A stretch of DNA of 64,000 bases, taken from assembly GCF_054482595.1 (NCBI RefSeq), contig NZ_CM137008.1. One strand, written 5' to 3'. Numbering within the stretch: the first letter of the stretch is position 1; each line of letters starts with the position of its first letter. Under the pieces are notes generated by a model, which was given only the letters and a program-made list of their open reading frames with translations, did no database searches and was not told the DNA's origin. Shown here piece after piece: positions 61,330 through 61,345 of this stretch. The position numbers were made by a program, and so were the translations under genes.

Positions 61330-61345
61330 TGTGAATGAACTCACA
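61330..61345. promoter_or_regulatory. perfect CRP consensus box TGTGA-N6-TCACA upstream of ygfK
   Basis: ttgtgaatgaactcacagg, about 150 bp upstream of ygfK start codon. Confidence 0.5.

Follow-up and report, generated by a model that had tools for sequence, protein, structure and literature searches.

The sigma-54 form of RNA polymerase needs an ATPase activator to open a promoter. According to the accessible parts of the literature, CRP cannot activate a sigma-54 promoter alone, and at the promoters of this kind described elsewhere it usually acts as a repressor. At glnAp2 the polymerase recruits CRP to position -51.5, on its own helical face, and the bend keeps NtrC from the accessible face. 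PprpB, the promoter of prpBCDE, is a sigma-54 promoter that needs PrpR, IHF and cAMP-CRP. At the IHF-assisted enhancers of Pu and nifH, the space between the enhancer and the -24/-12 elements is taken by a protein that bends DNA sharply, under face-of-helix constraints. Activation at the sigma-70 promoters of classes I and III requires CRP sites near -61.5, -71.5, -82.5 or -92.5. In this study, we compared these systems with the mocA-ygfK spacer of E. coli, in which two CRP boxes lie upstream of the sigma-54 promoter of the ygfK-ssnA-ygfM-xdhD operon. We propose, with confidence somewhat better than even, that CRP serves at this promoter as a catabolite-gated architectural (bending) co-activator. 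Such a device would be of a known kind, a sigma-54 enhancer-promoter pair with an intervening bending protein; its uncommon parts would be the use of CRP as the bender and a phase lock that extends across a regulon and across gamma-proteobacterial orders.

The window (the whole stretch of DNA analysed, 64 kb) is the E. coli purine/urate cluster, reversed relative to its genes. The first gene of the operon, ygfK, is a 1032-aa ORF on the minus strand (CDS 58080-61178), and mocA (ygfJ; 61500-62078, minus strand) lies upstream of it in the same orientation. In the RefSeq annotation of a strain identical across our 501-bp query (window 61100-61600), mocA, ygfK, ssnA, ygfM and xdhD are all co-oriented. 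From these coordinates and the annotation, the palindromic box at window 61330-61345 (box 1, the distal box; no strand assigned) therefore falls within the mocA-ygfK spacer (321 bp), downstream of the mocA stop codon and 152-167 bp before the ygfK ATG. It reads TGTGAATGAACTCACA on the plus strand and has a perfect TGTGA-N6-TCACA core. The preliminary description had reported a perfect CRP box at this place, about 150 bp upstream of ygfK, and both its sequence and its distance hold. The same description called the role of the operon poorly defined, which is outdated. The operon has since been assigned to reductive urate degradation, in which XdhD-YgfM forms isoxanthine from urate by reduction, and dearomatisation and ring opening fall to YgfK and SsnA (bioRxiv 2025.05.19.654654).

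Box 1 is the sole perfect TGTGA-N6-TCACA within the 64-kb window. In 100 dinucleotide-preserving shuffles of the window, 0.03 perfect boxes were expected on average, and three of the shuffles contained at least one. We also scored the window with a symmetrised CRP matrix made from 150 genomic-SELEX sites, all from outside the purine/urate cluster. With 14.7 bits box 1 was at the top of all window positions and would rank 26th against the 150 training sites, so that it combines the inverted repeat and the high matrix score of a canonical cAMP-CRP site.

Binding of CRP to this spacer has already been published. Shimada et al. (2011; PLoS One 6:e20081; PMC3105977) used genome-wide genomic SELEX for cAMP-CRP binding in E. 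coli, and in their report ygfK is a new target (Table 2) whose enrichment needed cAMP. With 9 of 160 clones, the ygfJ(mocA)/ygfK spacer came third in abundance (Table S2), and clone number, according to the authors, tracks affinity. It was recovered by both SELEX-clos and SELEX-chip and was not enriched when cAMP was left out. The entry 'ygfJ> >ygfK-ssnA' in their Table S3 is TGTGAGTTCATTCACA, the reverse complement of box 1 in the window, and a second, weaker site, TGTGAGGCGGCTCGAA, is given 30 bp from it; the published site is thus identical DNA to boxes 1 and 2 of our analysis. The same table also gives sites in the ygeV/ygeW and ygfT/ygfU(uacT) spacers. The published SELEX establishes that CRP binds the mocA-ygfK spacer in vitro; box 1 is a genuine high-affinity cAMP-CRP site, known since 2011 and hence not a new lead. 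The searched parts of the SELEX report treat ygfK simply as a new CRP target and do not address the sigma-54 promoter, the regulation of ygfK, conservation or phasing. Beyond the SELEX, we found in the searchable literature no report of crp- or cAMP-dependent ygfK expression or of CRP occupancy in vivo (ChIP). The Reg-Seq preprint lists ygfK among its targets, and the accessible part of its text and supplement gives no result for this gene. A CRP site at a catabolic operon is in itself unsurprising, and the unusual parts are its sigma-54 context and the quantised phasing described below.

Box 2, the proximal, CRP-like box (TTCGAGCCGCCTCACA; window 61300-61315, minus strand), lies exactly 30 bp downstream of box 1 and scores 9.2 bits with the CRP matrix, its right half-site being perfect and its left half weak. 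We considered a tandem-CRP architecture of the CytR type, in which an operator of TGCAA-type repeats is flanked by tandem CRP sites at a usual spacing. It was rejected, as the two boxes are 30 bp apart from centre to centre and have no TGCAA or TTGCA between them.

The ygfK promoter has the -24 GG and -12 GC elements of a sigma-54 promoter and is occupied by sigma-54. Bonocora et al. (2015; PMC4591121) mapped a sigma-54 ChIP-seq site (OS31) with the motif GTGGTGCGATTGTTGCT at 62 bp from ygfK, as well as sites for xdhA, ygeW and ygfT, and the expression of ygfK follows rpoN dosage (Zhao et al. 2010). In the window, these elements are located at 61251-61267 (minus strand), and they are nearly invariant in an alignment of 40 Enterobacterales. 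They form one of two overlapping sigma-54-like registers. The other one, TGGCAAGAGTGGTGCGAT at window 61258-61275, is the register predicted by Zhao et al. (2010) and was rejected because it is confined to Escherichia and one Citrobacter, the conserved register lying 9-10 bp downstream. A TGGCAC directly upstream of box 1 was also considered as a second -24 element and discarded, as it lacks a -12 partner and is unconserved even within Escherichia. Taking the -12 GC as positions -13/-12, we infer from the sequence a transcription start near window 61240, with an error of 1-2 bp in absolute positions, and relative to this start box 1 and box 2 would be centred at about -97.5 and about -67.5. 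The predicted 62-nt 5' UTR of ygfK (window 61179-61240, minus strand) contains a CCGNCGG...CCGG inverted repeat, a potential small hairpin (window ~61215-61235), which is conserved across Enterobacterales. The folding energy of the predicted 5' UTR was no better than that of shuffled sequence, and no RNA family of Rfam matched the spacer, even at a permissive threshold. There is no terminator-like hairpin between the mocA stop codon and box 1.

Because sigma-54 polymerase depends on an ATPase activator, a CRP contact of the classical class I/II type is insufficient at ygfK, and the predicted centres of the boxes do not coincide with the geometry of sigma-70 promoters of these classes (-41.5, -61.5, -71.5, -82.5, -92.5). 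The preliminary description suggested catabolite control of the operon. This idea survives in that the CRP site is genuine by genomic SELEX and that the pathway is repressed by glucose, yet the classical activation that it implied does not fit a promoter that is sigma-54-dependent. The boxes share with class I/III sigma-70 promoters the protein and the motif, and tandem sites are common there, but at ygfK we see no such promoter, and the spacing is locked to sigma-54. We regard it as very unlikely that they are classical tandem (class I/III) sites of an unrecognised sigma-70 promoter which drives ygfK independently of sigma-54. Such tandem sites do occur commonly at sigma-70 catabolic promoters, and E. 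coli has a TATATT hexamer between box 2 and the -24 element; this hexamer, however, is unconserved beyond Escherichia and close relatives and would centre the boxes near -56 and -26, which are non-activating positions. A consensus scan of the minus strand found no sigma-70-like promoter between the boxes and ygfK, its sole match on this strand lying upstream of box 1, and the distance that is conserved is the one to the sigma-54 elements.

We analysed the conservation of box 1 within E. coli and beyond. The region is present in 5171 of 5426 genomes and absent in 255. The 30-mer centred on box 1 shows essentially no change across 5081 complete E. coli genomes, while the surrounding 501 bp are only 95-99% identical in 3361 of the 5171. 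In NZ_CP172108.1 (E. coli QL57EC), only the first 89 of the 501 query bases match, at the ygfK end, and the upstream promoter region is apparently disrupted or replaced. For a phylogenetic footprint, we took one genome per species with YgfK, which gave 80 loci from gamma-proteobacteria and a few others. In 32 loci, the homologous place holds a box 1 with no more than one mismatch; 21 of these boxes are perfect, and there are 19 distinct spacers. These loci come from Escherichia, Citrobacter, Klebsiella indica, Trabulsiella, Edwardsiella, Serratia, Kluyvera, Buttiauxella, Pluralibacter, Atlantibacter, Hafnia, Morganella psychrotolerans, Intestinirhabdus and two other enterobacterial genomes. 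The half-sites are conserved while the spacer between them drifts. Counted from the T of the sigma-54 TGG, box 1 starts 79-81 bp upstream, or 91-92 bp upstream in two M. morganii genomes.

The alignment of the 40 Enterobacterales spacers showed five islands of conservation, namely the element TGATTTTAATTCTCAT, the half-sites of box 1, TTTAGA/TTTCGA...CTCACA (box 2), the sigma-54 -24/-12 elements and the short CCGNCGG stretch of the leader. Box 2 and the -24 element are separated by 33 bp that have kept their length but not their sequence. Box 1 has decayed in Klebsiella oxytoca, K. grimontii, Raoultella, Kluyvera georgiana and some Enterobacter, lineages in which the upstream elements persist together with box 2 and the sigma-54 promoter. 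Judged from the sequences, this pattern of loss fits an accessory modulator rather than an essential enhancer. That box 1 is a functionless chance match is effectively refuted: the shuffles did yield a perfect box in three cases, and the preliminary description had scanned many motif types, but the box binds CRP in the published SELEX (PMC3105977), its 30-mer is near-invariant in E. coli, and across Enterobacterales its half-sites are conserved around variable spacers at a fixed distance from the promoter.

The position of box 2, 49-50 or 60-61 bp from the TGG, has a wider conservation than that of box 1 and recurs in Enterobacterales, Aeromonas, Vibrionaceae and Shewanella. Distant lineages share the G at position 4, the A at position 5 and TCAC, and these include the positions that Shimada et al. 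(2011; PMC3105977) name as the most important for CRP. Positions 1-3 vary (TTA, TTC, TGC, TCT, GTT or CTT). In nearly all Enterobacterales the left half has a non-consensus core at positions 2-3, with TTAGA or TTCGA in place of TGTGA. The retention of TTAGA/TTCGA is unexplained by CRP affinity alone and is odd for a site selected purely for CRP affinity.

To examine the phasing, we located in each of ~70 gamma-proteobacterial species the best CRP-matrix match between 110 and 30 bp upstream of the sigma-54 TGG. The best matches are confined to four distances from the TGG, 49-50, 60-61, 79-81 and 91-92 bp, which are one-turn steps. The proximal site is at 60-61 instead of 49-50 in most of the Vibrionaceae scanned (seven loci), and the distal site is at 91-92 instead of 79 in Morganella morganii. 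Cedecea sulfonylureivorans and Buttiauxella sp. A111 have a single, better site at 49 (TGCGA-N6-TCACA). CRP-like sites also accompany the other sigma-54 promoters of the cluster, at 59 bp from the TGG for E. coli ygeW (12.9 bits), 50 bp for ygfT (10.3 bits) and 49 bp for xdhA (a weak 7.4 bits), two of which are also SELEX hits (PMC3105977). Four or five separate rearrangements led to the same ~2-bp window of the 10.5-bp helical repeat, although the placements are not all independent, as the species are related. Hence, a site for a bending protein lies between the candidate enhancer and the promoter in a fixed helical phase, and the bend may have a function there.

The same phase distinguishes ygfK from the repressed sigma-54 promoters. 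As described in the accessible literature, glnAp2, dctA and Pu are like ygfK in that CRP acts on the sigma-54 closed complex and on the geometry between enhancer and promoter. They differ in having weak or no CRP sites and in being repressed, whereas ygfK has strong, conserved sites and a pathway phenotype that points to activation by cAMP. At glnAp2, CRP occupies a weak, recruited site at about -50.5 on the face of the polymerase, and ygfK does not have this arrangement. The ygfK-type sites lie 16-17, 27, 46-47 or 58-59 bp upstream of -50.5/-51.5, equivalent to about n+0.5 helical turns, a phase that depends on the predicted start; they would therefore be on the opposite helical face. That a position on this face is stimulatory we infer from a secondary description of Huo et al. 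(2006). We think it unlikely that CRP binds the boxes and represses, which would require that it holds the closed complex or the intervening DNA so that the activator is blocked, with ygfK lowered at high cAMP. The accessible reports show that CRP-cAMP down-regulates the sigma-54 promoters of dctA, glnAp2, glnHp2, ast, nif and Pu, and a mechanism via bending and a contact of AR1 with the alpha C-terminal domain is documented. The urate pathway, however, is repressed by glucose (low cAMP) and not by its absence, the boxes are strong and conserved rather than weak and recruited by the polymerase, and their phase differs from that of the repressive -50.5 by about half a turn. Compared with the repressive cases, the ygfK-type sites are thus strong and conserved, on the opposite face, and associated with a glucose physiology that points to activation.

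We next consider the activator. ygeV is encoded within the cluster and annotated as a protein with a sigma-54-interaction domain, and ygfK, ssnA, ygfM and xdhD are members of the YgeV iModulon. We found no published binding motif for YgeV. Immediately upstream of box 1 is the conserved element TGATTTTAATTCTCAT (window 61354-61369, minus strand), a candidate YgeV UAS near -121. Its column conservation among the 40 Enterobacterales is among the highest of the spacer and comparable to that of the sigma-54 elements, and it occurs as a single copy in the cluster locus L001. Further upstream, the palindrome TTATCATAATGATAA (window 61435-61449; no strand assigned), a candidate distal YgeV UAS at ~-202, is related to the 13-mer TCTCATATTGATA. 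This 13-mer is perfect in the uacT/ygfT and ygeV/ygeW spacers and has one mismatch upstream of xdhA; the ygfK spacer matches it with two mismatches, as TATCATAATGATA inside the palindrome. The copies of the family are at L001 4967-4979 (window 46066-46078), L001 30005-30017 and L001 35823-35835, besides that at window 61435-61449. Two perfect copies in 40 kb, both in spacers with sigma-54 promoters, are far beyond chance, and at the orthologous position the ygfK spacers of other species have TCTCATATTGATA or TTATCATTGTGATA. The TCTCATATTGATA family and TGATTTTAATTCTCAT are the best candidates for YgeV binding sites, an assignment suggested by their placement and conservation. TGATTTTAATTCTCAT shares the words CTCAT and TGAT with the 13-mer in a different arrangement. 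Upstream of xdhA, outside the window, the palindrome ATTGATACGTATCACT (L001 35828-35843) adjoins the candidate YgeV motif and scores 10.6 bits with the CRP matrix; therefore, the candidate enhancer motif and the CRP half-site are partly alike (ATCAC).

The motif families bear on another explanation, namely that the boxes are mainly UAS of YgeV or of another regulator and that their binding of CRP in vitro is incidental or competitive. Known activator sites include the NifA UAS, TGT-N10-ACA, which box 1 fits, and the TyrR box, TGTAAA-N6-TTTACA. We judge this explanation to be distinctly unlikely. Positions of ~-97.5 and ~-67.5 with face-of-helix conservation are also typical of activator sites near sigma-54 promoters, CRP-like sites occur at all four promoters of the YgeV regulon, and box 2 has kept its non-consensus left half. 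However, -67.5 would be an unusually close centre for an enhancer, and what box 2 conserves across phyla is the G at position 4 and TCAC, the main contacts of CRP, and not the outer TGT/ACA of the NifA type. A better enhancer candidate is the non-CRP motif family common to the four promoters (TCTCATATTGATA, perfect in two of them, plus TGATTTTAATTCTCAT), which is kept in species that lack box 1. In addition, the binding of CRP is direct, cAMP-dependent and high-ranking in the SELEX data (PMC3105977). The spacer contains two distinct conserved motif families, one of which matches and binds CRP while the other is the natural candidate for the activator.

We therefore return to the reading that CRP is a bending co-activator at ygfK. 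Box 1 would be the distal member of an in-phase CRP pair, with centres near -97.5 and -67.5, placed between the sigma-54 promoter of the operon and the candidate YgeV enhancer (near -121 and -202). CRP would put its bend on the helical face that brings the activator, bound at the enhancer, round to the sigma-54 closed complex; in doing so it would take the usual place of IHF, and two in-phase dimers at ygfK may produce a sharper bend. As a consequence, reductive urate/purine degradation would be expressed only at high cAMP, in other words when there is no glucose. Within the mocA-ygfK spacer (window 61179-61499), the IHF consensus WATCAANNNNTTR had no match with up to one mismatch, and for this reason we favour CRP as the bending co-activator that replaces IHF. 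The closest relative in this respect is PprpB, which like ygfK is a catabolic sigma-54 promoter and, by its own requirement for cAMP-CRP, provides a precedent for positive dependence. PprpB uses IHF, whereas ygfK has two phased CRP sites at the usual IHF position in a spacer lacking the IHF consensus. The arrangement at ygfK is also alike to that of the IHF-assisted enhancers of Pu and nifH, with the difference that its bender would be CRP, which responds to cAMP, so that the architectural step would itself be regulated.

Published physiology provides arguments in both directions. In wild-type E. coli, urate degradation is glucose-repressed, and swapping only the ygeV-ygeW intergenic region relieved this repression (bioRxiv 2025.05.19.654654). 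In view of this swap, catabolite control could act mainly via the levels of YgeV or via the ygeW operon. From the same work, the ygfK boxes appear to be dispensable when the activator genes are overexpressed, and are thus not strictly required. A broader version of our proposal is that cAMP-CRP is the phase-locked architectural co-activator of the entire YgeV/sigma-54 regulon (ygfK, ygeW, xdhA and ygfT) and replaces IHF throughout, with sites on one helical face at centres of ~-67.5, -78, -97.5 and -109.5 in Enterobacterales, Aeromonas, Vibrionaceae and Shewanella. We advance it tentatively, as somewhat short of an even chance.

The ygfK operon performs the first steps of the reductive pathway by which gut Enterobacteria degrade urate, and this pathway is the object of engineering aimed at lower urate levels in serum (bioRxiv 2025.05.19.654654). 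Which promoters carry the catabolite switch, and how, matters for this engineering and for predicting the use of urate by E. coli in the gut. It is unusual for a sigma-54 promoter to have a CRP site that is both strong and phase-locked in evolution, the known examples in the accessible literature being mostly repressive with weak sites. If CRP is a positive architectural factor at ygfK, the promoter would offer a clean system, provided by nature, in which to study enhancer looping gated by a signal. If the mechanism extends to the regulon, it would be a natural case of a metabolic signal gating the DNA-looping step of sigma-54 promoters, and would give a molecular basis for the glucose repression of urate breakdown by gut bacteria.

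The window contains other CRP-like sites. Good matrix or near-consensus matches were found at 27167-27182, 19251-19266, 14157-14172, 14252-14267, 4960-4975 and 46195-46210, at gcvT/visC, serA/rpiA, argP/scpA (two sites), mscS/fbaA and ygfT/ygfU; all six are equal to, or one base off, sites in Table S3 of Shimada et al. (2011; PMC3105977). There are two more matches. The first, TGTGACGTAATTCTCA (window 62523-62538), scores 12.9 bits and is inside yqeC, and the second, TATGAATATTTTCACA (window 62998-63013), scores 10.4 bits and overlaps the annotated start codon of yqeB.
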